A stretch of DNA of 64,000 nt, from assembly GCA_900752335.1 (NCBI GenBank), contig CAADUZ010000024.1, positions 2,200-66,199 of the forward strand, in the 5' to 3' direction. The notes beneath the pieces are model-generated. The model saw only the letters and a list, made by a program, of their open reading frames with translations. It was not told the origin of the DNA and searched no databases. Below are positions 16,600-54,963 of the stretch, one piece after another. The number at the start of each line of letters is the position of its first letter. Position 1 is the stretch's first letter. The stretch comes from Clostridia bacterium (GTDB taxonomy: Bacteria > Bacillota > Clostridia > TANB77 > CAG-508). Position numbers and translations under genes: made by a program.

Positions 16600-17055
16600 A
16601 TGAAAAAGATAGTAGCAACAAACCCTACAGCCCGTCATAACTATACAATAGAAGATACTTATGAAGCCGGAATCGTTTTAACAGGAACTGAAATAAAGTC
16701 GATAAAACAAGGCAAAGTAAATTTAAAAGATAGTTATGCTAATATAAAAAATGGCGAAGTATTTATATATGGTATGCATGTAAGTCCATATGAATTTGGA
16801 AATATATATAACAAAGACCCTTTAAGAACTAGAAAGCTTTTATTAAATAGAAGAGAAATAAACAAACTAACAGGATTAATAAAACAAAAAGGATTAACTT
16901 TAGTCCCTATCTCACTTTACTTTAGTGGACATTTCGTTAAAGTAGAACTTGGTGTTGGTAAAGGAAAAAAATTATATGATAAAAGGCAAGATATTGCAAA
17001 AAAAGATGCCGAACGTAGAATGCAAAAAGCAATGAGTTTAAAAAATCAAAGTTAG
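16600..17055 (+). CDS. smpB: SsrA-binding protein
   Basis: 151 aa; NRKARHNY-like start ([12 protein letters not shown]...); full SmpB length. Confidence 0.9.
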
Positions 17056-18224: not shown

Positions 18225-19640
18225 TTACCTATAAGACGTCGAAAACGATCTTACAAGACCATAGGGGCAAATCCTGAACAGATAGTCTCTTCCAAGAATT
18301 GCAACGTCCTTTGGATTAAGTTCGTCCGCAATTCTGGCGGAAAACATTTGCTTGGATTTGAGTTCTCCATGGTTTACCAGTACGAGTTTCAGGCAGTTGA
18401 ACTTTTTAAGGAAAGCCAACATTTCGTCCGCTTTTGCGTGTGCAGACATTTCGTTTGTATACTCTACGTCCGCATACTTTCTCTTTACCAGTCCTCCTGC
18501 TGTTACCACTTCTCCGTTTGGCGTGTCTTTGAGTTCACGCCCGAGAGTTCCTTCGGCTGTATACCCAGTAAACTGAATCAAGCAGCCTTCCCTTCCTATA
18601 TAGGAAGGGATATAGACCTGTGCAGGTCCATAAGTCCCCATTCCAGAGGTGGTAACAATGATTTTACAACCATTGTCTTCAAGAAGGCTTGGTCTGGATT
18701 CTTTGTCAACATACGTCAGATTTTCCGGTAAGAAATCCAACATGTCTTCTTTGATATCCAAATTCGCCCTTTTGTAGAGCTCCGTGTACCGCAACGCAAG
18801 TTTCCCATCCAGATAGATAGGAATATCTGCACTGATTTTGCCATTTTTCTGCATACACTTAAGCATATACAGAATTTCCTGGCATCTTCCAAGAGAAAAT
18901 ACCATACATACAGCAGTCTTTCCTCTCTTCATGCACGACGTAATATTGTCTTGCACTACCGGAACAATTTCCGTAGAGTCCATATATCCATAAGTGGATT
19001 CTTGAACCAACGTCAGCGGTAAATCCAGCACCCAGTCTGGAAGGTCGGGAATGTCAAAAAAGACATTCTTGTTGTTGTAGTCCCCAGTAAAAAGGATATT
19101 GATATCCTCATACCCTGGATAACTGATTTGCACCAAAATCATCGCAGCACCAATCAGATGGCCATTCTTGAAGAATGTAGCTTTAATGTTTTTGCTAACA
19201 TAAACTGGCAGCTCGTAATCGCAGCCAACTACTTTCTTCAAAGTGAGTGCAACATTGTCCTCGTTATAGAGGGGCTGCACATGGTTTCTTTTGGCGGTGT
19301 CTTTTAACACCTTGTACGAATCATATAGTGCAAGCGGCAAAAAGATTTCTGTTTGTTTTGTAGCGTATATCTTACCTCCATATCCGGTTTTGTCAAGTAA
19401 CGGTAGCCGTCCAACATGGTCTACATGATTGTGCGTAATAAGCACAAAATCAATGTTGTCGCTGTCAAACGGGAATGAACGGTTATACTCTTGGTAATCC
19501 CGCTCTTGGAATAGTCCGCAGTCAACTACGAACTTGGCGCTTTCGCCATTAGGATACTTGACAATCACAAGATTGCAAGAACCTGTCACTTCTGGTTGTA
19601 ATGCCATTATGTCAGCATAAAACCGTTCTTTTGAGCCCAT
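18225..19640 (-). CDS. MBL-fold beta-CASP family metallo-hydrolase (RNase J/CPSF-like nuclease)
   Basis: 471 aa; HNHVDHVGRLP (HxHxDH). Markedly higher GC (about 42%) and different codon usage from the flanks. Confidence 0.7.
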   Translation of the reverse strand: MGSKERFYADIMALQPEVTGSCNLVIVKYPNGESAKFVVDCGLFQERDYQEYNRSFPFDSDNIDFVLITHNHVDHVGRLPLLDKTGYGGKIYATKQTEIFLPLALYDSYKVLKDTAKRNHVQPLYNEDNVALTLKKVVGCDYELPVYVSKNIKATFFKNGHLIGAAMILVQISYPGYEDINILFTGDYNNKNVFFDIPDLPDWVLDLPLTLVQESTYGYMDSTEIVPVVQDNITSCMKRGKTAVCMVFSLGRCQEILYMLKCMQKNGKISADIPIYLDGKLALRYTELYKRANLDIKEDMLDFLPENLTYVDKESRPSLLEDNGCKIIVTTSGMGTYGPAQVYIPSYIGREGCLIQFTGYTAEGTLGRELKDTPNGEVVTAGGLVKRKYADVEYTNEMSAHAKADEMLAFLKKFNCLKLVLVNHGELKSKQMFSARIADELNPKDVAILGRDYLFRICPYGLVRSFSTSYR

Positions 19641-22310: not shown

Positions 22311-23189
22311 TTAATTTAGGTTCCAATCTTCAATTATTCTTTTGTCGATATTTAAATTTCCATAGCCAATTCCTAATTTTCTATCTTTCTTCTTATCCCC
22401 ATGGCAGTCAGAACCTCCAGACATTAATATTTTTTTGTCTTTGCAGTAATTATACAGCGTATCTATTTGTAATTGTGAAAAAGAACTATGATATACCTCT
22501 ATCCCATCTATTAATTCTTTATCTATGATTTTATTTAAGAAATTAATATGGTTACTTAAATTATACTTATATAAATGTGCTAGAAAAATCTTTCCATTAT
22601 GTTTATGTATAAGCTCTTTTACAGACTCAAGTGTTGGCATTTGTTTACTAAAATCTCTATATAACGGAAAGTTTCTATCTACCGTACATGTTCTAAAAAA
22701 TATTCCGCAGTCATTCCATTGCTCATTTGTAAAAAATTTTTTGTTTCCTGGAAATTTAATAATACTATTATAAATAACGTCTACAGGATATTCTGTGTCT
22801 GGATTATACTTGAGGTTCTCTTCTATTTTTATATCCTTTTCATTACATATTCTAACAAAATCTTTAAACTCTTCAATTAATCTATTTCTATTTTTGGCCT
22901 CACTATAATAGCTTTCCAACCAGTTTTGAACTGAATGTAAATCAAAGTCATATGCTAAAACTTCAATCTTTGTTCCTTCAAATGTGCAGTTTAATTCAGC
23001 TCCAATAATTAATTTTCCTTTATAAATATTTTTAAGTTCAGGATTTTGTTCAATTTCAATATATGATTTCGCTGTATCGTGATCAGTTATAGAAAATGCG
23101 TCTAATTTTAATTTTTGCGCATTTTCAAGTAATTCTTTTGTACTCCATGTTCCATCTGAATTTGTTGTATGTGAATGCAAATCAATCAT
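22311..23189 (-). CDS. PHP-domain phosphoesterase
   Basis: MIDLHSHTTNSDGTWS...FSITDHDT is the PHP N-terminal metal-binding motif. Confidence 0.75.
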   Translation of the reverse strand: MIDLHSHTTNSDGTWSTKELLENAQKLKLDAFSITDHDTAKSYIEIEQNPELKNIYKGKLIIGAELNCTFEGTKIEVLAYDFDLHSVQNWLESYYSEAKNRNRLIEEFKDFVRICNEKDIKIEENLKYNPDTEYPVDVIYNSIIKFPGNKKFFTNEQWNDCGIFFRTCTVDRNFPLYRDFSKQMPTLESVKELIHKHNGKIFLAHLYKYNLSNHINFLNKIIDKELIDGIEVYHSSFSQLQIDTLYNYCKDKKILMSGGSDCHGDKKKDRKLGIGYGNLNIDKRIIEDWNLN

Positions 23190-38173: not shown

Positions 38174-38683
38174 CTAAACTAATATAATAACTATTGCCAG
38201 CCCTACAACGCCTCCTAATGTTTTATATAGTTTTTCGTTTTTTTGCTTTTCTTTTTCTGCCAAATCTATCTGTGTGTTTAAAAAGTTTTGTACTAGTTTT
38301 ATCTCACTTATTTGTCCGTCTATATCTGTCTTTCCAAGTAATTTTCCTAATGATTTTATAATATCTTTATCTTCTTTTGTAAAGCTAGTGTCAGTTTGTT
38401 CTATAGATTCTTCCCAGGCTTCTCCTGCCGATTTTTCTTGCATATTTTCCGAAGCGGTTTTAAATATTTTTCCTACGTTTCCAGAAACGTTTGCACCTAT
38501 CTCGCTAAAACTTACTGGTACTGCTTCATATGTAAATTTTATTTTGGTTAAGAACATATTTAATGCATTTTTCATATTTCGCAGTTCTTCTACTCTATTT
38601 GAGTATTTCTTTGCTATTATTTTTCCCATCCTTATACTTGCTAAAAATATTGATAATAATATAAAAGTTTTAATAAATATCAT
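38174..38683 (-). CDS. spoIIIAB: stage III sporulation protein AB
   Basis: 169 aa; operon position. Confidence 0.75.
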   Translation of the reverse strand: MIFIKTFILLSIFLASIRMGKIIAKKYSNRVEELRNMKNALNMFLTKIKFTYEAVPVSFSEIGANVSGNVGKIFKTASENMQEKSAGEAWEESIEQTDTSFTKEDKDIIKSLGKLLGKTDIDGQISEIKLVQNFLNTQIDLAEKEKQKNEKLYKTLGGVVGLAIVIILV

Positions 38684-39639
38684 TTGCTTTCCTCCTTCAA
38701 ATGTTTAATACCTATTAAACTTATGCTTCGGTCTTTTTCTATTAGCAATGTTCTTTCAATTATGTTCATTCTGTATAAGCTTTGCAAAATAGGGTTTTGC
38801 ATTATGTCTTCCATGCTTCCGCCATGTGCTGTAAATATTCCTTTTACCCCTGACGTTGTAGCATATTTTATAGCTTCTATGTCCTCTTTTGTGCCTATTT
38901 CGTCTGCTGCAATAACTTCTGGTGCCATTGCTCTTACAAGCATTTTCATTCCTTTTTCTTTGCTAATATTATTTAAAATATCTGTTCTTTCCCCTAAATC
39001 GTTCTGTGGCACACCTTTATACATTGCAGCAATTTCTCCTCTTTCGTCCACCACCCCTACATGAAGTCCTTTAAAATTTATTTTTTCAAGTCCATTGCTT
39101 ATGCTTCTTACAATATCTCGTAGTAAAGTGGTTTTTCCTCTCCCTGGTGGCGAAAGTATAATTGTGCTATGTATTGTATTTTCATGTGCATTTACTATAT
39201 ATGGCAAAGCCATGCTGCTGCAGCCTAGTATTTGCCTTGCAATTCTAAAATTTAAACTATATATGTATGATATATTTATCACTTGTCCATCTTTTACTAC
39301 TACTTCTCCTGTTATTCCTACTCTATGCCCACCTTTTATTGTTATATAGCCATTGCAAATTTGACTTTGATATGTATAAATTGAATTATCACAAATTCGT
39401 TGCAAAATCTCCAATACTTCATTTGTATTTACAATATAGTCTACTTTTATTTCCTTTAAACTTGTCCTTAATAATATATGTCTGTTTATGTATACATGTA
39501 TTTCTTGCGTTTGATTTAAAAAATTTGCATATTCTATTAACTTTTCTTTAATTCTTCTTGGAAAGTAATCCAAAATTTCTATTATACTCTTATCCATGTT
39601 TTTCCTTTGCTTATGTATATTAATAAAAAAATACAACAT
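38680..39639 (-). CDS. spoIIIAA: stage III sporulation protein AA (ATPase)
   Basis: GYITIKGGHRVGITG, Walker A PPGRGKTTLLRD, VVDERGEIA; strong match to SpoIIIAA. Real start probably MDKSIIE. Confidence 0.9.
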   Translation of the reverse strand: MLYFFINIHKQRKNMDKSIIEILDYFPRRIKEKLIEYANFLNQTQEIHVYINRHILLRTSLKEIKVDYIVNTNEVLEILQRICDNSIYTYQSQICNGYITIKGGHRVGITGEVVVKDGQVINISYIYSLNFRIARQILGCSSMALPYIVNAHENTIHSTIILSPPGRGKTTLLRDIVRSISNGLEKINFKGLHVGVVDERGEIAAMYKGVPQNDLGERTDILNNISKEKGMKMLVRAMAPEVIAADEIGTKEDIEAIKYATTSGVKGIFTAHGGSMEDIMQNPILQSLYRMNIIERTLLIEKDRSISLIGIKHLKEESK

Positions 39640-39704
39640 ATATTAATATATATGCTGTACTTTTTTATTTTAGAACTATTTTTTAGTTTAAATTATACTT
39701 CTCC

Positions 39705-41273
39705 CTATAAACCTATTGAAGTTTCTGGAATATTTGACGGCCTATAATCATTTGGATCTACTGTAGTTTCTGTATTCTGGTCTGCAATCATATTATTCAC
39801 ATATGACTCTATTTCATCTACTTGTTCTTGCTCTTCTTGTAACGCGTCTTCATATTCTTGTTGTGTTTGTTCTACTGAATCTAATAAGCTAATTGTTGAT
39901 ATATGTGAAGGTGTCACAATCCATGTTAATAAAGGATTTCCATATTGCATATTGTAACCTATTGCTGTCATTTGCTCTGTATTTATTTGAGCTATTCTAG
40001 CTCCAACCTGTGTTATAAGAGGTATTATTTGCTGTGCTGAATAATTGTTTAATATTGCTGCATTTGCTGTAGTTATTGGCTCTATATCAACATTTCCAAA
40101 ACTTACAGTATTTTCATATGCATATGTTATATCATATTCATTTTCGTATTTTACATTCATTTCGTAACTTTCTGCTACTGCATTAGTATTTAATCCTGAC
40201 AGATTTATTATTAATCCTATTTCTTCACCGTTTGCAGCGTTTGATACAGAGAGTTTATATGCTACTGCATTTTCTGTTTCCTCTTTTTCTATGTTAAATA
40301 CAATATCTTCACTTTCTATATTGATTTTATTTGTTTTTCTATCATTTTGGGTAATATTTACTTTTAAAGTACCGTCTTCCCAATCTTGTTCAGTCACGTA
40401 GTCTATCTCGTCTTGTATATCTTCAGAATTTATTACATAACTTTCGTCATATTCCTCGGCATATAATTCTTCCATTATTTCATTTATTTTGTTTATCATA
40501 GTTTGATCTCTTCTTAATGTTTCTAGAAGATTTATATATATTTGCTTTATTTCTGCACTTGTTAATGTTAAAGTATATGTTACAGAGCCATCTGCATTTT
40601 CTGTTTTAGAAAATTTTTCTTCTGCTAAATTATTGTATATTGGTAAAATGTATTCTGTCTGGATATGTGTTTTTTCTTTCTCTGTTAAATTTAAACTTTC
40701 TAACTTACTTGAAGTTTCTATTTTGTTTGGTATGCTTTCTACATTTTCCATTCCAAATTTTTGTGCAAATTCTTTTAAATTGTTATTTTCTATGGCTAAA
40801 TATGTTTCTGAAACGCTATCTGCTTGCACACCATATATATCTCCATATTTTTTAAAGTTAAATGGTAATTTTACTGTGTCTGAATAATTTATTGATATAT
40901 TTTGCTCTATTTTATTATTTACATTATCCACTTTTCCTGAAAATGTTATATTTGTGTTATTTCCTGCCTCTACCGCCCTGTTATATGCTTGCAATTCATA
41001 ATTAGTAGATATGTCTTTTAGTATGTTTACATTAGCAGTTATTTTCCCATTTGTTGTATATGTTGTTGCTTCTTTTTTTGAAAAATATGTATTTACAGAG
41101 TTTGTAATAAAGCCTTCTTCTTTATCTCCAAGTTGCATAACATATTTTCCAAATCCCTGTTTTTCTGAAAGTAATAAATCTGTACAAAAGAATATATATG
41201 CAAATATTCCTCCTGCTATAATTAAAACTAGAAGTATAACAATTATTGTGATTATAATACCTTTTTTCTTCAT
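39705..41273 (-). CDS. hypothetical N-terminally anchored extracytoplasmic protein
   Basis: 522 aa; single N-terminal TM; acidic Gln/Glu-rich C-terminus; no recognisable domain. Confidence 0.4.
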   Translation of the reverse strand: MKKKGIIITIIVILLVLIIAGGIFAYIFFCTDLLLSEKQGFGKYVMQLGDKEEGFITNSVNTYFSKKEATTYTTNGKITANVNILKDISTNYELQAYNRAVEAGNNTNITFSGKVDNVNNKIEQNISINYSDTVKLPFNFKKYGDIYGVQADSVSETYLAIENNNLKEFAQKFGMENVESIPNKIETSSKLESLNLTEKEKTHIQTEYILPIYNNLAEEKFSKTENADGSVTYTLTLTSAEIKQIYINLLETLRRDQTMINKINEIMEELYAEEYDESYVINSEDIQDEIDYVTEQDWEDGTLKVNITQNDRKTNKINIESEDIVFNIEKEETENAVAYKLSVSNAANGEEIGLIINLSGLNTNAVAESYEMNVKYENEYDITYAYENTVSFGNVDIEPITTANAAILNNYSAQQIIPLITQVGARIAQINTEQMTAIGYNMQYGNPLLTWIVTPSHISTISLLDSVEQTQQEYEDALQEEQEQVDEIESYVNNMIADQNTETTVDPNDYRPSNIPETSIGL

Positions 41274-41346
41274 ATGATTTTCCCCTCTCTTATTTTAAAA
41301 GCAGAAGTTAAAATTTCCTTTATGAATTAAAACTTCTGCTTATATC

Positions 41347-42072
41347 TTATTCTTCCCAATTATGATATACGTTCATAACGTCGTCTAAATCTTCTAGATT
41401 GTCTATTAATCTTTGCATTTTTTCTCCATCTTTTTCATCTAACTTAATGTATGTAGATGGAACCATTTGAACTTCTGCTTGTAAAAATTCTAATCCTTGT
41501 GCTTCTAGTGCTTCTCTTACTTTTGCAAAATCTTCTGGAATCGTTGTTATTTCATAACATTCATCTGTTGCTTCAAAATCTTCTGCTCCATTATCTAGCG
41601 CAAGCATCATCATATCGTCTTCTGATAAATCTGTAGTAGTTCTATCTATTACTATTACACCTTTTTTAGAGAATAAATATGATACACAACCTGAAGTTCC
41701 TAGGTTTCCTCCTGACCTATCAAATGCATGTCTTACGTCTGCTGCCGTTCTATTTTTATTATCTGTACTTGCTTCTACTATAACGGCTACACCATTTACA
41801 CCATAACCTTCATATGTAATTTCTTCGTAGTTTTCGTTATTTCCTGCACCTGATGCCTTCTTTATCGCATTGTTTATTGTATCATTTGGCATGTTATTTG
41901 CCTTACATTTTGCTATTACGTCCTTAAGTTTAGAATTACCAGCCGGGTCAGGTCCTCCTTGCTTTACTGCGATTAATAATTCTCTTCCTAGTTTTGTAAA
42001 TATTTTTCCTCTTGCTGCGTCTGCTTTGCCTTTTTTTGCTTGAATATTATGCCATTTGCTGTGTCCTGACAT
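41347..42072 (-). CDS. yebC: YebC/PmpR family DNA-binding transcriptional regulator
   Basis: [31 protein letters not shown] is the canonical YebC N-terminus. Confidence 0.9.
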
Positions 42073-42281: not shown

Positions 42282-43136
42282 TTAAACAGTTAAAATTTCT
42301 ATGTCTAAACTTGAAATAAATTCTTTTATTTCTTTTATGATTTCTTCAAACTTAATATCATTTGCATATTTATTCTTTTTAGCATACCCATTCCATAAAC
42401 TTACAATTCTATCATATGAAGATATACTATCTAAAATCTGTTCATAATCTTTTAAGTAGTCAAGCGATTCTCTTTTATCAAATGTATTTTTTATTGATAG
42501 TTTTAAATTCTTAATATCAATATTATCCTTAAATTTTTTTAAAAACATATGTACATCGTAGTAATCTTTCATTCTGCTATTGTATTGTCCTCTTCTTAAA
42601 ATAGTTTCAATTTTTTCTGATATTATTGTTTCAACATTATATGTATAAATTAATATCTTTTTATCTTCAAATAATGATGGATAACTATAATCCAACTCTT
42701 TTGGTACAACTTTATCTCCTGTAGAAATATCAATATCTAAATTAATTTTAAGATTTTCTAATTTTCCAATTAAATGATATTTATTCCCACCATATTCATC
42801 TTCTTCTCTTATATCAGTTATATCAACCAACTCAAATTTTACTCCGTCTTTTAAATCAATATTTAATATTTCGTTTAAAACTTTTACCATCTGCTCTTTG
42901 GAAATATCTAGTCCTTTGATTGTTGTATCCATATCTCTTGTAGTTCTATTATTGATTCCAAATAGTGCTGATAACAATAGACCACCTTTTAATATAAAAT
43001 TTTCTTGATATTTTGAAACTGAAATTCTTTCTAAAATTCTCTCAAACATAAATCTTTGTAACAATTCATAATGATTTAGTTGATATTTTCTCTCTAGTTC
43101 TTTTGATTTTTGTTTAAGTGCTTTATATCTTATCAC
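42282..43136 (-). CDS. AbiEii/AbiGii-family nucleotidyltransferase toxin (type IV TA / abortive infection)
   Basis: 284 aa; DUF1814-like NTase with FILKGGLLLSALFG…RTTRDMD. 4-bp overlap with the upstream antitoxin gene. Confidence 0.65.
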   Translation of the reverse strand: MIRYKALKQKSKELERKYQLNHYELLQRFMFERILERISVSKYQENFILKGGLLLSALFGINNRTTRDMDTTIKGLDISKEQMVKVLNEILNIDLKDGVKFELVDITDIREEDEYGGNKYHLIGKLENLKINLDIDISTGDKVVPKELDYSYPSLFEDKKILIYTYNVETIISEKIETILRRGQYNSRMKDYYDVHMFLKKFKDNIDIKNLKLSIKNTFDKRESLDYLKDYEQILDSISSYDRIVSLWNGYAKKNKYANDIKFEEIIKEIKEFISSLDIEILTV

Positions 43137-43726
43137 TTCATTAAAACCTCCATTATAGTAGTTAGTTTTTCATATACATTAAATATTCTAGCATATTCAT
43201 CTAATAGTTTTAAATTTTTATTTTTTAAATTAAAATAACTTTTCAAAATTTTATTGTATAACTCTATATCATACTCATCTTGTTTTTTTAGCATATCACA
43301 TATACATCTTTCTAAATTATATACAATTATAGGATTACCATATGGACTTGTTATAGTAATTTTACCTATATTTAACTTTTCTTTAGATACATAGTGAATT
43401 TTTACATTTTCTCTAATTTTTTTATGAGAATATGTAGTAACATCAAGTTCATATGGTGCTCTTTCACTAATTCCCAACAAGTGGAACGCAGTATTATATG
43501 AATAAATAATATTGTTGTAACGTTTTTGTAAAATATAGTATTCATCTTCAATTAATTTATTGTCAATGTATAAACCTCTTGATACTCTTCTAATTATTCC
43601 ATTTTTTATTAATTCTGGAATATATATTCTTTGAATTCCATTTTGTTCTATTTCTCTAGATGTTATATAACCATTATTTCCTTTTAAAAATTTTTCTATT
43701 TTTTTTATATTCATATTAACCCCCAT
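43133..43726 (-). CDS. AbiEi-family antitoxin / transcriptional regulator
   Basis: 197 aa; N-terminal wHTH (GYITSREIEQNGIQRIYIPELIKNGIIRRVSRGLY) typical of AbiEi_4; overlaps the toxin gene. Confidence 0.6.
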   Translation of the reverse strand: MGVNMNIKKIEKFLKGNNGYITSREIEQNGIQRIYIPELIKNGIIRRVSRGLYIDNKLIEDEYYILQKRYNNIIYSYNTAFHLLGISERAPYELDVTTYSHKKIRENVKIHYVSKEKLNIGKITITSPYGNPIIVYNLERCICDMLKKQDEYDIELYNKILKSYFNLKNKNLKLLDEYARIFNVYEKLTTIMEVLMK

Positions 43727-47658: not shown

Positions 47659-47738
47659 GAGAAATTAGGGACAGGTCCCATTTTCCCATTTTTGAGTTTA
47701 ACTGGAAATGAGAATTTGAGACCTGTCCCTAATTTCTC
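47659..47738. repeat. 19-bp perfect inverted repeat with 42-bp spacer, overlapping the pbp1A stop codon
   Basis: gagaaattagggacaggtc … gacctgtccctaatttctc. The loop contains aaatgggaaaatgggacctgtccc (minus-strand reading), which recurs at 63541. Confidence 0.7.
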
Positions 47739-50306
47739 ACTTCGTTTTCTTGTCTTTCGGTATCTTCAGTATCTTCAGTGTTTTCGGTATTTTCGGTGTT
47801 TTCACTTTCTGTGTTGTTGTCCCCTGTACTTGGTTCATATATGTCATTTTCTTCTACAGTGTTTTCTGGTATATCGTTTTCTATTATAGTGTTTTCCTCT
47901 ACCACGTTTTCTACGATTTCATTTTCTATTGTATTTTCTTCTATTGTATTGTTGTTTACTGTTTCTTCGTCATCTGGATTTAATTCCAAATCTTCTTTGC
48001 TATCAACATATACATTTGTTTCGTCTTCTTCTTCGTCGTCTATATGTGCATTTACTTTACTTCCGCTATGCTTTGTACACTCTTCTGGCTCTGTTCCTTC
48101 TAAAAAGTATTCAATATATGTATTGTTGCATCCGCTTCTTGCAATTTCTCCAGTATCCTCACATATTTCTTCTACCGATATTTTTTTAGGTTGATAAAAT
48201 CTAGCTCCTGTAAATCCGTCATGTATGCTGCTCATTACATTTGCCCACATGATTCCTGCTGGGTTTTGGTTGTTGTAATATATTGTTTCGTTTTGGTCAA
48301 AGCCAAACCATGTAACTGCTGTATAATATGGTGTAAAGCCACATAGCCATTTGTCATAATTGTCATCCGTAGTTCCTGTTTTAGCAGCTACGTCTATGCT
48401 GTGTATTGAGCAATATGTTGCTGTTCCATAGCTTCCATCTACTGGCTCTTGTAATAGCTTTTTTAGTACATATGCTACTTGTTCTGAAAATACATTCCTT
48501 TTTTCTTGTTTTGTTTTTAATACAGTTTTTCCTGTAACGTCTACTACTTTTGTGTAAAATGTTGGCTCTATATACCTTCCGTCATTTGCTATTGTGGCAT
48601 AGGCTGCTGCCATTTCAAGTGGTGTTATTCCATTGTCTAACCCTCCTAATGCAAGTGGCAAGCCTTCGTCATTTTCTGTAAGTGAAGTTATACCCATTTT
48701 TTCTAAATATGAAATTGATTTTTTAGGTGTAATCTCTTCCATCATTTCTACAAATGGAACATTTTGGGAAGATTCTAGCGCTCTTCTTACTGTTATTTTT
48801 CCTAAATATCCAGAGTTATTTCCTGGTGCATATCCGTCTTCAAATGTTTTCTTTTCGTCGTCATAAATCGTTGCACCAGTAAATATTTTTTCATTAATTC
48901 CTGGCACTAGCACTGCTAGTGGTTTTATTGCAGAGCCTGTTTGTCTTTGACTTTGCGTTGCTCTATTTAGTCCTCTAAATGTTTCCTTTTCTCCGTAATC
49001 CTCCTGTACAAGCAAGTACTTCTCCTGTTTGGTGGTTTAGTATAACCATTGCTGCTTGCGAGGTATCTTCTCCATTTTCGGAATACAAGATATATTGGCT
49101 TTTTAAAGATTCTTCTTCTACTTTTTCTTGTATGCTTGAATCTTGTGTGCTATATATAGTTGAACCTGATAGGTATAAATAATTCTTTGCAAAATCTTCC
49201 GAAATGTTTTTCTCTTCTGCTAAATCCTCTATTACTTCATTTATTAGTGCATCTGTATGATATGAATAAATGCAATCTCCTGTTTCTATTTCTCCTTCTT
49301 CAAAATCAAGTCCATTATTTACTTCATTTACCGCTTCTTCGTATTCACTATTAGATATTTTGCCTAATTCAAGCATTTTTTGTAGCACTGTTAATGTTCT
49401 ATCCGAAATATCTTCTTCGTTATCATATCCCTCAAATGGGTTATAGTAGTTTGGTGAGTTATTTATTCCTGCCAAATATGCACACTCTGCTAAAGACAAA
49501 TCTTTTACGTCTTTGTCAAAATAGTAATGAGCTCCAGTTTGCACGCCATACACATTTGGTCCAACATAAATTACGTTTAAATACATTTCCAAAATTTCTT
49601 CTTTAGTAAAGTAACTTTCTAGTAGAAATGCCTTCCACCATTCCTTTACTTTACGAGTTACAGAGTCTGTATTATCGCCAGTTAAGTTTTTAACTAATTG
49701 CTGCGTAATCGTGCTTCCTCCATATGAAGAATTACCAAAATGAGTTATATAGTTTAATATTGCTCCGCCAGTTCTTTTTATATCAATTCCATGGTGAGAG
49801 TAAAATCGTTCGTCTTCTATTGATACATACGCATCCAGTAAATTCTGTGGCATTTCTTCTATATCCACTGTCATCTTTTTCTGTTCATTTCCAAGCTCTG
49901 CAATTACTTCTCCGTTTTTATCTAAAACAACAGAGTTTTTATTTGTAAACATTGCTGTACTTATTTTTTTCCAATTATGGGCTGAAATTCCAAGAAAAAT
50001 CCCAAGTGCTACTAATAAAATTAGTATAATTATTAAGATAACTTTTCTTTTAAAAGCCTTTTTCCTTTTTTTGGCTGCTTTAGAGTTCTTGGTTTCTCTT
50101 GCATTTCTGCTTAGCTCACTTTTATTTATTTTATTATACTGCGCATTATTTCTCTTTGCTGCTTCTCTTCTTTCTTTGTCTTGCTTCATTTTTAGCACAG
50201 ATTTAGGAATTTCCTCTTCTTCGTTTCTTACTCTTCTCAAAACTATTCTCCTATCATAATATTTTATTTCTTTACATATTTTATACCGAATTTTAGTTTT
50301 TAGCAA
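47729..50306 (-). pseudogene. class A penicillin-binding protein 1A (GT51 glycosyltransferase plus transpeptidase), split by a frameshift near 48995-49007
   Basis: ORF 48975-50306 has GT51 (IEDERFYSHHGID) and ends HQTGEVLACTGGLRRKGNI*. ORF 47729-49015 continues in another frame (DYGEKETFRGLNRATQSQRQTGSAIKP, SQN, KTGT). One missing base in a G run (acaggagg|attac) restores …GG.DYGEKETF…. Confidence 0.7.
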
Positions 50307-50310
50307 TAGC

Positions 50311-50841
50311 TTAATATATTTCCTCTATATCTATACGTGCATTTGTATATTCTACTTCTTCTAATGATAGCCCATTAAGCTGTAATATATCTCCTGCAGT
50401 TAACTCAAGTATAACTGTAGCAGTTAGAGTATATCTATTATTTGCAATGCTTCCTTGTAGTACTGGTCCTTCGTTTAGTGTTTCTAGTATTGGCACAGTG
50501 TTTACAGCTAGAATTGCATTAAAATTAAATGTTCCTGTTTGAGTTGCCACTCCTGTTAATTGATATGAAATTTGATATATTCCATCTTTATTTATCATAA
50601 TCTCGCTAGAACCTGGCGTGTGCGATAAAGCATCTCCTACTGCAATTTGATTTTGACTAAAATTAATTATTGCATTACCTGTTTGTGTATTATCTCCACT
50701 TTGTGCAGTAGCTACAAGTATACTTTTATCTTGACTCATATTATTTCCCATGCATATACATATTATAGATATGAATATTATGAAGAATATACTAAAAATT
50801 AGTGTTAATTTTAAAGCTTTGCATTTATTTTCATAACACAT
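50311..50841 (-). CDS. membrane-anchored protein with C1q/TNF-like (BclA C-terminal-like) domain
   Basis: 176 aa; N-terminal TM; C-terminal GIYQISYQLTGVATQTGTFNFNAILAVNTVP…GDILQLNG pattern resembles Bacillus C1q-like jelly-roll domains. Confidence 0.45.
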   Translation of the reverse strand: MCYENKCKALKLTLIFSIFFIIFISIICICMGNNMSQDKSILVATAQSGDNTQTGNAIINFSQNQIAVGDALSHTPGSSEIMINKDGIYQISYQLTGVATQTGTFNFNAILAVNTVPILETLNEGPVLQGSIANNRYTLTATVILELTAGDILQLNGLSLEEVEYTNARIDIEEIY

Positions 50842-50915
50842 AAATTATTCCTCCTTTCATAATATATAATATGAAAAAAGCAAAGCTATGGATATTCCCC
50901 ATAACTCTGCTTTTA

Positions 50916-50942
50916 TAGAACTTCTACTAGAAGTTCTATACG
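50916..50942. terminator. perfect 13-bp palindrome downstream of the ClpX-like gene
   Basis: tatagaacttcta-c-tagaagttctata. Confidence 0.4.
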
Positions 50943-50946
50943 CCTA

Positions 50947-51993
50947 CTACGATAATTGATACTTGGTGTTATCATGCACGAGTTCAAGTGTCAGCCTACA
51001 TTTGGAATACTTCCCAGGATGAGCCATAACATTGTAAATTATGTCTTCAAACATATAATTTACTGTATTGCTCAATTCTCTTGCACCAGTGTCCAGTTTC
51101 AAGGAACTTGCTGCAATTTCCTCGAAGATTTTTCCATCATACTGTAAGCTTATTCCGGCATCTCTTAACTCTCTTTGGTATCTTCTGAAGATAGAGAGTT
51201 TAGATTTCTTTAAGATTTGAACTAAATCCTCCTTTTCGAGTGGATTCATCTCCACAATAGTGTCAATTCTTCCTACAAACTCTTCCGGCAGTCCGTACTG
51301 AACCAAGTCTTCTTTGGTGTATCTAGTGCTTTCTGCAGTTTGTGCTTGCGAGCTGCTAAAGCCGATTTGGTTCTGTCCCAGCCTTTTCTTTCTGATTTTG
51401 TCTATTCCAGAAAAAGCTCCGCAGAATACAATAATCAAGCCGCTCGTGTCAAACACTTCTTCAGAAACCAAGTTGTATTTAGCACCTTCTACGATTTTTA
51501 AAAGGCTCTTCAAAACTTCAACACCCGATACGTCACTTGAGTCAGTGCCAGCTTTTTTGTCAATTTCATCTATTATTAGCATGCCGTGCTGTGCCTTTTC
51601 CAAGTCATAGTCAGCTGCTTCTAATAGATTTTCGAGCATATCCTCCACGTCGCCACCATAGTAACCTTCTTTTGTGTACTTTGTGGCATCTTCAATAGTG
51701 TAGGGTATACGTAGCCTCTTGGCAATTTGTTTGAACGTTTCTGTTTTACCAGTCCCGCTCTTTCCCATTACCAAGATATTGGTTTTAATTGACTTCAGGT
51801 AAATAGCTCTATAGATAGCAGTTATAATTTTTCTAACTGCAGTATCTTGACCTATGATATACTGCCGTACATTGTTTTCCATATTTTGAATTGGTGGAAT
51901 GCTTCTTCTTTTTTTGCCTTTGTTAGCTCCTTTCTTAAATTGTTTCATGCCTCCCGAATCTTGTAATTCTCTCTTTTTTCCCCGTGTTTCCAT
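50947..51993 (-). CDS. ClpX-like AAA+ ATPase lacking the zinc-finger domain
   Basis: 348 aa; IIGQDTAVRKI, NILVMGKSGTGKT, YTIEDATKYTKEGYYGGDVEDML, GMLIIDEIDK, EEFVGRIDTIVE all parallel ClpX motifs. N-terminus is a basic Lys/Arg-rich tail. GC about 40% versus about 25% in the flanks. Confidence 0.7.
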   Translation of the reverse strand: METRGKKRELQDSGGMKQFKKGANKGKKRRSIPPIQNMENNVRQYIIGQDTAVRKIITAIYRAIYLKSIKTNILVMGKSGTGKTETFKQIAKRLRIPYTIEDATKYTKEGYYGGDVEDMLENLLEAADYDLEKAQHGMLIIDEIDKKAGTDSSDVSGVEVLKSLLKIVEGAKYNLVSEEVFDTSGLIIVFCGAFSGIDKIRKKRLGQNQIGFSSSQAQTAESTRYTKEDLVQYGLPEEFVGRIDTIVEMNPLEKEDLVQILKKSKLSIFRRYQRELRDAGISLQYDGKIFEEIAASSLKLDTGARELSNTVNYMFEDIIYNVMAHPGKYSKCRLTLELVHDNTKYQLS

Positions 51994-52095
51994 AGGCGTC
52001 TACTCCTTTCTATTTAGAGAAGAATTTGTATACAAGAATATGCGACTATTATATCACGTTTTTACCCGGTTTGTAAATATATTATGACAACAACT

Positions 52096-52758
52096 TCATA
52101 TAATCATTCCGCTTCCATAATCATATATGTCTAACCCTTTGAAACTAACTAATTCTAAATTATATCTATTTAAATGTTCCATTATTTTTTCTTTATTTTT
52201 CAAATTATCTATATCTCCAAATAATACAAATTTATTGTCAAATACTAATGTTGCGCCTCCTATAAATCCGTGCATTTGTGATAATGTTCCATCTCTTTTT
52301 AGTAATTTTATATTCTCTTCTTCTATGTATAATGCATCCACATTGGCTTTTTTTAATTCTTCATATATGCTTTTATCTGTAGTAATACACGAATTATCGC
52401 TTGTTACTGCTACAGAACATTTTACATACCCCTGCTTTACAAGCACATTTGGTTTGATGCTTGCATCTACATATTTACTTCCTATTATTTTATCTCCTAT
52501 TTGGCATGCATTATATAATACGTCATTTGGGTATTTGCCTCGTACCTCTTTTTTGCCTGTCACTGCATTTGGTATATGAAGCGGTGCATTTGGCGCTTCA
52601 ATTATGCTTCCATTTATTCTTGTATAAAATATATCGCTATGCCCCGATATTTCTTCATACACGTCATTTGATAGCGGTAATTTTATAACGTCGAAATATT
52701 TTTTAAAAAATTCTAATTCCGTATCTCTTATTCTCTCATCTATTATTAATTTTTTCAT
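52096..52758 (-). CDS. hypothetical protein
   Basis: 220 aa; no confident family (SGHSDIF…HGFIGGATL faintly pentein-like). Confidence 0.3.
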   Translation of the reverse strand: MKKLIIDERIRDTELEFFKKYFDVIKLPLSNDVYEEISGHSDIFYTRINGSIIEAPNAPLHIPNAVTGKKEVRGKYPNDVLYNACQIGDKIIGSKYVDASIKPNVLVKQGYVKCSVAVTSDNSCITTDKSIYEELKKANVDALYIEEENIKLLKRDGTLSQMHGFIGGATLVFDNKFVLFGDIDNLKNKEKIMEHLNRYNLELVSFKGLDIYDYGSGMII

Positions 52759-52783
52759 TTACTTTTTCACTTTCTTTCTTTTT

Positions 52784-52915
52784 GGAACAAGGGGACACAC
52801 ATTTTGTTCCAATTTTGAAACAAAGGGACAGACATTAATAAATTCTGATAATTTTAATTTACCATATCCGTCCCCAATTTTCTTTTTTGGAACAAAATGT
52901 GTGTCCCCTTGTTCC
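52784..52915. repeat. MITE-like element with 27-bp terminal inverted repeats, related to the 17061 hairpin
   Basis: ggaacaaggggacacacattttgttcc … ggaacaaaatgtgtgtccccttgttcc flanking a 78-bp AT-rich core. Confidence 0.65.
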
Positions 52916-52923
52916 AGTTTTTG

Positions 52924-53652
52924 CTAAATCCCAGCTTTTTCTGCTATCATAAATCCAGCATAAACAGTAGAGTATTCTGCCGTTATTTCTTTTAGTAATT
53001 CCTTTTCCTCTTCCATTAGTGCTTTTCCTAAATTAGACATTTTCTTGTCTAGCTTTTGTGTCATTTTTGCACAGTCTTTTAGTTCTTTTTGTATGTTTTT
53101 TGGTACTTGCTTATCATATTTATAGTTTATTTTATGTTCCAAGCTTGCCCAAAAGTCCATTGCCATTGTTCGTATCTGTATTTCTACTTTTACGTCTATT
53201 GTTCCTATCGATAGGCTAACTGGAACAGATACTATTAAATGGTAGCTTGAATATCCACTTTCTTTTGGAGATTGCACATAGTCTTTTTTCTTTATAATAG
53301 TGATGCCCGGCATATTTTCAATCATTTCTACTATTTTATATATGTCTGGTATAAATGAGCATATTATTCTCATTCCCGCTATATCGTTAATTGTTTTTAT
53401 TAAGTTTTCATAGTTTAGTTCCAAGCCTTTTTTCTTTAATTTCTTTACTATGCTTTCTTTACTTTTTATTCTGCTACTTGTATGTTCTATCGGATTATAC
53501 TTATGTAATACTTTAAATTCTTCACTTATTGTATTTATTTTTCCCTCTATTTGTTGTAGTGCTGCTGTATACATGAATGTGAGTCTTTTATATTCCATAT
53601 CCTCTTGCAGGCTATTTTCTTTTTTTACTACTTGATTTTCTATAGTAATCAA
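52924..53652 (-). CDS. small alarmone synthetase (RelQ/RelP-like GTP pyrophosphokinase)
   Basis: 242 aa; HKYNPIEHTSSRIKS…DIAGMRIICSFIPDIY matches the RelA_SpoT synthetase domain of YwaC/YjbM. Confidence 0.85.
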   Translation of the reverse strand: MITIENQVVKKENSLQEDMEYKRLTFMYTAALQQIEGKINTISEEFKVLHKYNPIEHTSSRIKSKESIVKKLKKKGLELNYENLIKTINDIAGMRIICSFIPDIYKIVEMIENMPGITIIKKKDYVQSPKESGYSSYHLIVSVPVSLSIGTIDVKVEIQIRTMAMDFWASLEHKINYKYDKQVPKNIQKELKDCAKMTQKLDKKMSNLGKALMEEEKELLKEITAEYSTVYAGFMIAEKAGI

Positions 53653-53736
53653 CTCCTTTGTATGTTCTTTGTATATTTATACACTACATTTGTGTCCAAT
53701 ATGTGTAATTTTACTGTTAATTTAAAGTTTTATTTT

Positions 53737-54963
53737 TTAAAATTCATCTTCCAAATGTTTTTCTTTTAGCTTTTTATTTGTACTTTCTTGCGTGATTGCA
53801 TATATTATTGAAACTACTGGTAGACCAATTATCATTCCCATTATTCCAAATAAACTTCCACCTATTGTAATTGCAACTAATACCCAAATGCTTGGAAGTC
53901 CCATATTTTTTCCTACTACATGAGGATAGATTAGGTTTCCTTCTACTTGCTGTAGTACTATTATGAATATTATAAAGATTAATGCTTTAATTGGATCTAC
54001 TGCAACTATTAATATTGCTCCTATAAATCCACCTATGAATGCTCCAACTATTGGTATAAATGCCGTTATTGCAGTTAGTGCTCCGATTGGCCCTGCATAA
54101 GGGATTCCTAGTATTAGCATTCCTATTGCACATAGTGAGCCTAGTATTACTGCTTCTTTTGCTTGACCTGTTAAGAAATTTCTAAATGAATCTCTTGCAA
54201 GTCTTGCTACTTTCAGTACATAATCTGCTTTTTCTTTGTCTATTCTAGCATACACAAATTTCTTTGCCTCTTTTTTTAGGTCTTCTTTATTTAATAATAT
54301 GTATACAGAGAAAATTATTGCTATAAAGAAGTTTATTACATTAGAAATAAGGCTAGAAATTTGATTTATCGTTATATTTAATACGTCCTTTGATAAATTC
54401 ATTATTCCGTTTTTCAATGCTTCTGTATCTATTTCTATGTTTTGTATAAAAATATTAGCTTCTGGAAATTTTTCAGTAATTTCAATAGCTAAATTTTGTA
54501 AGCTTTGTAAATAGTTTGGAATATTGCTAATTAAATTTCTAATAACGTCTATAAATTGTGGGATTATTAATAATAGTATAATGGTTATTATTGCCACAAT
54601 AGTTATTATTGATAGAATTATGGCAAAAGCTCTATCAAATTTGCTTTTCTTTTCTACTTTTTTTGTGCTGTCTTTTCTTTTATTTTTAGTATTTTTTCTT
54701 TGTCCTATCTTAAATAATTTATTTTCATACAGTGTCATAAAAATGTTTAGTATAAATGCTATTGCAAGCCCCCATATAAATGGCGAGATAATATTAAAAA
54801 ATGATAATCCTGCATCCCATACAAATTTTATATTAAATAGGGCTACTAATAAGATTATAGCAATTATCACTATTTTTAATATTTGCTTTGTATTTTCTTT
54901 GTCCAACTTCATATTTTCCTCCAAAAATAAATTTTCTTGCAGATTTTGCATTAAAATCCACAA
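53737..54963 (-). CDS. AI-2E family transporter (UPF0118/PerM)
   Basis: 408 aa, about 8 TM helices; typical AI-2E topology and the GLPYAGPIGALTAITAFIP region. Confidence 0.8.
   Translation of the reverse strand: MWILMQNLQENLFLEENMKLDKENTKQILKIVIIAIILLVALFNIKFVWDAGLSFFNIISPFIWGLAIAFILNIFMTLYENKLFKIGQRKNTKNKRKDSTKKVEKKSKFDRAFAIILSIITIVAIITIILLLIIPQFIDVIRNLISNIPNYLQSLQNLAIEITEKFPEANIFIQNIEIDTEALKNGIMNLSKDVLNITINQISSLISNVINFFIAIIFSVYILLNKEDLKKEAKKFVYARIDKEKADYVLKVARLARDSFRNFLTGQAKEAVILGSLCAIGMLILGIPYAGPIGALTAITAFIPIVGAFIGGFIGAILIVAVDPIKALIFIIFIIVLQQVEGNLIYPHVVGKNMGLPSIWVLVAITIGGSLFGIMGMIIGLPVVSIIYAITQESTNKKLKEKHLEDEF

Follow-up and report, generated by a model that had tools for sequence, protein, structure and literature searches.

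This report concerns a ClpX-like AAA+ ATPase gene in a 64,000-nt stretch of DNA from a Clostridia bacterium (contig CAADUZ010000024.1 of assembly GCA_900752335.1, positions 2,200 to 66,199 of the forward strand; hereafter, the window). Our best reading is that the gene encodes a predicted active hexameric AAA+ unfoldase of the ClpX type, which comes from a distinct paralog family; the gene itself is native and vertically inherited. We further propose, at a probability of about 0.6 and judging by sequence features, that the protein would serve as an alternative ClpP-docking unfoldase with an altered choice of substrates.

The initial annotation, made from the sequence alone, described a 348-aa ClpX-like AAA+ ATPase, and this description holds. 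The span that it marked (50880-52010) contains a single open reading frame (ORF; Table 1) and also covers part of a terminator. Pfam finds the domains AAA_2, AAA and ClpB_D2-small in the protein, and solved ClpX structures are matched by sequence with E = 1.5e-47 (phmmer against the PDB). The top NCBIfam matches are the two ClpX equivalog models, NF003745 (227.6 bits) and TIGR00382 (209.1 bits); the protein reaches the curated cut-off of neither (359 and 370.75 bits, respectively). The AlphaFold model has a mean predicted local distance difference test score (pLDDT) of 81.5, and its top Foldseek matches are all ClpX subunits from ClpXP complexes, with template modeling scores (TM) of 0.72-0.83 and 0.60 for one chain. 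We consider the fold established, and likewise the motifs: Walker A and B, the pore-1 loop, the arginine finger and the sensor-2 arginine were located by motif alignment (Table 1). The pore-1 loop reads GY(Y/V/W/I)G in most family members.

The proposal of docking concerns the IGF loop. The initial annotation saw no clear IGF/LGF tripeptide, from which a protein lacking the ClpP-docking loop could be supposed; in this it was wrong. The tripeptide I210-G211-F212 is present at the equivalent position, and the query segment NQIGFSS aligns on RGLGFGA of Mycobacterium tuberculosis ClpX and on KVIGFGT of Listeria ClpX (HMMER). A hydrophobic residue followed by Gly-Phe stands at this position in all 49 full-length family loci and in about 135 of 142 aligned sequences, the latter set consisting of 139 representatives at 50% identity, the query and two canonical ClpX controls. 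In the alignment of 49 sequences, neither G211 nor F212 varies, although the loop around them does. The stretch 212-221 has a pLDDT below 50, which one would expect of a flexible docking loop. A tripeptide conserved inside a variable, poorly ordered loop is the signature of a docking motif under selection. We infer ClpP docking from motif conservation only: the hexamer would dock through its six IGF loops on a ClpP ring whose gene lies elsewhere in the genome, and would feed this ClpP a substrate set unlike that of canonical ClpX.

The presumed shift in substrates is connected with the parts that differ from ClpX. As the initial annotation noted, a basic tail takes the place of the zinc finger: the N-terminus has no match to zf-C4_ClpX (PF06689) and no Cys pairs, and its Lys/Arg-rich residues 1-28 are predicted to be disordered (pLDDT < 50). 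The relatives have in common a small GG/GSG motif and then a basic patch at the N-terminus. The RKH motif is absent from the query and from all 49 loci, where the region is deleted or variable; it occurs in 3 of the 142 aligned sequences, two of the three being the canonical controls. The RKH/pore-2 segment of the query is about ten residues shorter than that of ClpX. With RKH lost, recognition of ssrA-type tags would be unlikely, and the loss of the zinc-binding domain would make the adaptors that depend on it unusable; the basic tail may recruit substrates instead.

Several observations weigh against docking on ClpP. The pore-2 loop of the query is short and variable, and in E. coli ClpX this loop also contacts ClpP. 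Following IGF, the query is about 5 residues shorter in the alignment than E. coli ClpX. No clpP is found in the 64-kb window, so that a ClpP partner in this organism is assumed. Finally, the ClpX-like gene is apparently co-transcribed in 11 loci with a gene for a beta-CASP ribonuclease, which is considered below, and never with clpP; this hints at a role not centered on ClpP.

The family is large. Its homologs at 55-85% identity number thousands in public data, nearly all of them without a name. We compared 50 genome loci, which come from metagenome-assembled genomes of uncultured gut Clostridia and Bacilli with a G+C content (GC) of 25-35%; family relations were judged by pairwise identity comparisons. 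By identity, the query is nearer than canonical ClpX for 121 of the 139 representatives. The N-termini differ across the family. Some distant members retain a CxxC...CxxC ribbon, and because of this ribbon we conclude that the family, resident in low-GC gut Clostridia and Bacilli, is descended from ClpX. Many members, mostly Bacilli, have an unrelated N-terminal domain of 150-250 aa with no Pfam match, and some are tandem AAA+ fusions; for this reason the N-terminal fusions of the longer members were uninformative as a clue to function. In the clade of the query, the basic tail alone stands at the N-terminus.

The relation to canonical ClpX is seen at one locus, L008, which carries a canonical tig-clpP-clpX operon. 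The ClpX encoded there has both RKH and zf-C4_ClpX (67.5 bits), and 4.3 kb downstream of the operon there follows a family member with 62% identity to the query. At L010, the gene order downstream of the operon is the same as in L008; the sequence ends before the operon. Coexistence with canonical ClpXP is thus established for a relative. This coexistence and the scores under the equivalog cut-offs lead us to assign the query, on its sequence, to a ClpX paralog family and not to ClpX itself. A clpP gene adjoins the ClpX-like gene at none of the 50 family loci. The initial annotation had placed the gene away from clpP, tig and lon. For clpP this stands, since tblastn of the 64-kb window finds neither clpP nor a second clpX; tig and lon are not among the annotated genes around the locus, and no window-wide search was made for either.

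One could object that the query is the only ClpX of its organism, a degenerate ortholog that lost the zinc finger during genome reduction and performs ordinary ClpXP housekeeping. The lack of another clpX or clpP in the window agrees with this, as do the small AT-rich genomes of the host lineages (a 1.55-Mb chromosome is among the matches) and the retention of all motor motifs and the IGF loop. Nevertheless, we consider this explanation improbable. The family member in L008 coexists with a full tig-clpP-clpX operon; the query scores well under the equivalog cut-offs; and it has lost the RKH loop, which clostridial canonical ClpX keeps. The identity of its AAA+ module is 34% both to E. coli ClpX and to a clostridial ClpX, compared with 65% between these two canonical proteins of different phyla.

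A foreign origin and a defence role were also suggested initially. The order SAS (RelQ-like) - DUF6873 - ClpX-like - BclA_C - class A penicillin-binding protein (PBP) is found in L001, L002, L019 and L055, and the same gene set occurs in L004 in a rearranged order. The identity of the ClpX-like protein to the query falls from 85% (L001) and 84% (L002) to 69% (L019) and 60% (L004), in the same rank order as that of the neighbors. In other loci, the gene stands amid housekeeping genes (SecA, HrcA-GrpE-DnaK, IleRS, DapB); its divergence follows that of SecA (rho 0.79). We therefore regard the gene as native, since synteny is conserved and divergence is congruent in the sister genomes, and we consider vertical inheritance established. 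The ratio of nonsynonymous to synonymous substitution rates (dN/dS) between close pairs is 0.08-0.17, which is ordinary purifying selection; positive selection on the gene is not seen.

Phage origin was rejected, as PHROGs and phage tblastn matches are at the level of ClpX in general (about 35% identity), and a scan of IMG/VR with family-specific motifs gave zero matches. Plasmid origin was rejected too: the top plasmid matches, which are ordinary clpX genes, do not reach 40% identity. As for a defence system, PADLOC yields short P-loop matches only, none full-length; the best is DolB (46.5 bits, residues 31-95 only).

Horizontal acquisition with a defence or other conflict role is still worth stating. 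It would agree with a real excess of G+C at third codon positions (GC3), which shifts the gene to all G/C-ending codons, including CTG, CGG and TCG; with its faster divergence compared with the flanks (57-65% vs. 78-99% identity); and with the beta-CASP neighbor at L035, which looks replaced by a divergent allele. We find it very improbable. Syntenic orthologs have the same GC3 excess, with fourfold-degenerate sites nearly saturated relative to L019 and L004, and the purifying selection, the parallel with SecA, the housekeeping neighbors and the database results given above all speak against it. With orthologs at the same locus, an intact IGF loop and no close relative in phages, plasmids, IMG/VR or defence models, foreign origin is unsupported; as a member of a large family native to low-GC gut Firmicutes, the gene is therefore neither foreign nor a defence gene. 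The two features that the initial annotation itself had named as evidence against its idea, an intact IGF loop and orthologs of similar composition at this locus, are both present.

The neighbors were named correctly in the initial annotation. The C1q-like membrane protein has 176 aa, a hydrophobic helix at the N-terminus and a BclA_C (C1q/TNF-like) domain (30 bits, under the Pfam cut-off of 38), and the 220-aa protein is a DUF6873 protein (149 bits, Pfam); the ClpX-like gene sits between their genes. A functional link to either was rejected, because the genes adjoin only within the genus, with a changed order in L004 and a fragmented DUF6873 gene in L055/L056. In this 84%-identical relative, the DUF6873 gene, which lies upstream of the ClpX-like one, is present as fragments of 73 and 59 aa (L055:9181-9844, L056:381-560); it is therefore dispensable there and is no obligate partner.

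The elevated GC noted initially is real. The ORF has a GC of 0.388 compared with 0.296 for the window, and the elevation is limited to the ORF; outside the listed ORFs of the window, GC is 0.26. The GC3 is 0.385 against a mean of 0.197 (standard deviation 0.056; z = +3.3, n = 54 window ORFs). GC1 and GC2 are normal (z < 0.8), so that amino-acid composition was rejected as the cause. The excess recurs in the clostridial members (z > 2 in 18 of 48 loci, median +1.5) and is absent in most Bacilli members. It persists in the orthologs L019 and L004 despite the near saturation mentioned above; leftover donor composition is therefore unlikely. Codon bias of high expression was also rejected: the aldolase and peroxiredoxin genes of the window are not raised, nor are SecA, HrcA, GrpE, DnaK, ClpP and canonical ClpX of the loci, and the enriched codons include CTG, CGG and TCG. 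As tentative candidates we consider GC-biased gene conversion linked to recombination, and selection favoring rare codons. The GC3 excess and fast divergence, which the ClpX-like and beta-CASP genes have in common, make a small unexplained evolutionary puzzle.

The beta-CASP gene (Table 1) has a GC3 of 0.452, the highest in the window, and is its only other GC3 outlier. The best NCBIfam match of the protein is the type VII CRISPR Cas14 model, with 234 bits against a cut-off of 800; therefore, it is only a beta-CASP relative. It has no PADLOC match. Its homologs are the immediate same-strand neighbor of the ClpX-like gene in 11 of the 50 loci and stand one gene away in a twelfth. The gaps range from -7 to 186 nt, the flanks vary by lineage, and the order is swapped in L026. 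The window protein is 48-57% identical to the copies at those loci over the full length of these copies. When syntenic blocks are compared, the lowest conservation is that of these two genes together (57-65% identity, with 78-99% for the flanking genes), and both are raised in GC3.

It is tempting to propose a ClpP-independent remodeller that works with the ribonuclease, the module being split apart in this genome. The basic tail could then be RNA-binding, and the unfoldase could strip or unfold proteins of RNA-protein complexes or regulate the ribonuclease. The recurrent adjacency with differing flanks and swapped order, the full-length similarity of the window copy to the linked copies, and the status of the two genes as the only GC3 outliers and the least conserved of the block are all consistent with this. 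Even so, we hold it to be unlikely. A ClpP-independent job would need no conservation of IGF; the genes are unlinked in most loci and lie 31 kb apart in the window; in a reciprocal metagenome scan starting from beta-CASP, none of the 10 loci, which were mostly short, had a ClpX-like gene; and the adjacency could be decaying ancestral synteny, with only about 3-4 independent lineages.

A broader idea, to which we give a similarly low probability, is that of an undescribed two-gene module of low-GC gut Firmicutes, either a pair of unfoldase and nuclease that acts on RNA-protein complexes or a cassette related to conflict. Its marks would be close adjacency on one strand in several lineages, together with an excess of G/C-ending codons and a rapid divergence common to both genes; here the two would have become separated, with the unfoldase left under a promoter of its own. 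A functional pairing of the two genes is, for us, a minority hypothesis, and the ClpP-docking unfoldase remains the preferred reading.

Some observations on the beta-CASP genes and their surroundings deserve mention. The beta-CASP protein at L035:832-2301 is only 32-37% identical to those of the sister loci compared (L031-L034, L038). For the ClpX-like proteins next to it the identity is 64-70%, and for SecA it is 95-97%, which points to replacement of the beta-CASP gene by a divergent allele at a fixed position. In the window, the genes for SmpB, the tmRNA partner (16600..17055, +), and for a PHP-domain protein weakly similar to RNase RNM (22311..23189, -) both lie within 3 kb of the beta-CASP gene, the three forming a small RNA-quality-control gene cluster. 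A thymidylate-kinase-like P-loop gene beside a PHP-domain gene recurs near the ClpX-like gene (L024:1040-1684, L008:9075-9821, L033:1964-2605). With a GC3 of 0.31-0.64 compared with about 0.15 around it, it is the strongest compositional outlier among the neighbor families.

The features of the gene are collected in Table 1. The promoter-like site, predicted by consensus match only, has the top score within 50200..53900 and is located in the gap of 102 nt that follows the DUF6873 gene; the hairpin is the region's sole terminator-like site. Judging by these signals (a promoter-like site, a Shine-Dalgarno sequence and a terminator-like hairpin of its own), the ClpX-like gene is most likely a single transcription unit.

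Table 1. Features of the ClpX-like gene and its possible partner gene, in window coordinates
Feature	Position	Strand	Remark
Coding sequence of the ClpX-like AAA+ unfoldase	50947..51993	(-)	348 aa, single ORF in the span
Sigma-70-type promoter-like site: TTTACA, 18-nt spacer, TG, TATAAT	52048..52077	(-)	11/12 matches, extended -10
Shine-Dalgarno sequence GAAAGGAG	52003..52010	(-)	9 nt upstream of ATG, read from sequence
N-terminal basic tail, residues 1-30, KKRELQDSGGMKQFKKGANKGKKRR, replacing the C4 zinc-binding domain	51904..51993	(-)	
Walker A GKSGTGKT, residues 77-84	51742..51765	(-)	motif alignment
Pore-1 loop GYYG, residues 110-113 (ClpX: GYVG)	51655..51666	(-)	motif alignment
Walker B MLIIDE, residues 138-143	51565..51582	(-)	motif alignment
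IGF tripeptide I210-G211-F212 in a flexible loop, equivalent of the ClpP-docking loop of ClpX	51358..51366	(-)	
Arginine finger R242, inside EFVGRID	51268..51270	(-)	motif alignment
Sensor-2 arginine R305, inside TGAREL	51079..51081	(-)	motif alignment
Intrinsic-terminator-like hairpin, 17-bp stem, then T run	50876..50914	(-)	33 nt past the stop codon
CPSF73/TTHA0252-type beta-CASP metallo-beta-lactamase ribonuclease, 471 aa, possible partner gene	18225..19640	(-)	

Some other features of the window were noticed as well. The class A PBP gene consists of two overlapping ORFs (47729..50306, -), for the transglycosylase (48975..50306) and the transpeptidase (47729..49015), with the junction at about 48975..49015. 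Compared with the fused PBP gene of L004 (786 aa), the window and L001, L002, L003, L019, L055 and L056 all have one and the same additional base. The junction site reads (C/T)T(T/A)-CGG-A with a Shine-Dalgarno-like AGGAGG/AGGTGG 3 nt upstream; in this genome, CGG is hardly ever used for Arg. Purifying selection acts on the transglycosylase half, the one for which dN/dS was measured (0.10). The arrangement resembles a conserved programmed +1 frameshift (prfB/Ty1 type) or a PBP that is genuinely split.

A pair of an AbiEi antitoxin and an AbiEii nucleotidyltransferase toxin (a type IV toxin-antitoxin/abortive-infection module) is found at 42282..43726 (-), with a GC of 0.22. The arrangement YebC - DUF6583 - spoIIIAA/AB... 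at 38174..42072 (-), read by synteny with L055:14618-21047, indicates that the organism is probably an endospore former. In the relative L055, spoIIIAA and spoIIIAC each appear split into two ORFs.

ClpX is usually regarded as one highly conserved adaptor-and-motor for ClpP. The family described here retains the motor and the ClpP-docking loop, and the parts by which substrates are selected (zinc-binding domain, RKH loop and N-terminal domain) are swapped. It is a large uncurated sister family without a dedicated NCBIfam or Pfam model, with more than 100 clusters at 50% identity closer to the query than to ClpX. If docking on ClpP is true, many uncultured gut Clostridia and Bacilli would own a second ClpP specificity factor; this would matter for proteostasis, and perhaps also for sporulation or RNA metabolism, in organisms that are abundant in the gut. 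Nothing here overturns the knowledge of Clp proteases.

Among the known systems, canonical ClpX has the same AAA+ large and small domain fold as the query, the same Walker A/B, pore-1 aromatic-hydrophobic loop, arginine finger and sensor-2, and the IGF/LGF docking tripeptide at the same alignment position. It differs in having the C4 zinc-binding domain, the RKH loop, a longer pore-2 region and the tig-clpP-clpX operon; the overall identity of the query to E. coli ClpX is about 33% (BLAST). HslU (ClpY) belongs with the query to the ClpX/HslU clade of AAA+ proteins and also has no zinc finger. Unlike the query, it carries an inserted I-domain, lacks an IGF loop and docks HslV via its C-terminus; the AlphaFold model of the query has no I-domain insertion, and the match of the query to the HslU model TIGR00390 is limited to three short stretches (99.8 bits, cut-off 362.45). 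Mitochondrial CLPX has no RKH motif and does not use ssrA tags. It is, like the query, a ClpX relative without RKH (Foldseek TM 0.75-0.77), though with lower sequence similarity (126 bits); unlike the query, it keeps a zinc-binding domain at its N-terminus and has a mitochondrial insertion.

Myxococcus xanthus ClpX3 (MXAN_2743) is an isolated extra ClpX without the N-domain and RKH, encoded apart from clpP and existing beside a canonical clpP-clpX operon (PMC11423568). It is 43.5% identical to E. coli ClpX and weakly transcribed, and its deletion gives a heat-sensitive phenotype (PMC11423568). ClpX3 comes from another phylum, and the GC3 excess and recurrent beta-CASP neighbor of our family are not reported for it; coexistence with canonical ClpX is seen here in the relative L008, not in this genome. 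In the lack of the N-domain and RKH and in the location away from clpP, the two proteins agree, and as likened by its published description, M. xanthus ClpX3 is the closest published analogue of the query.

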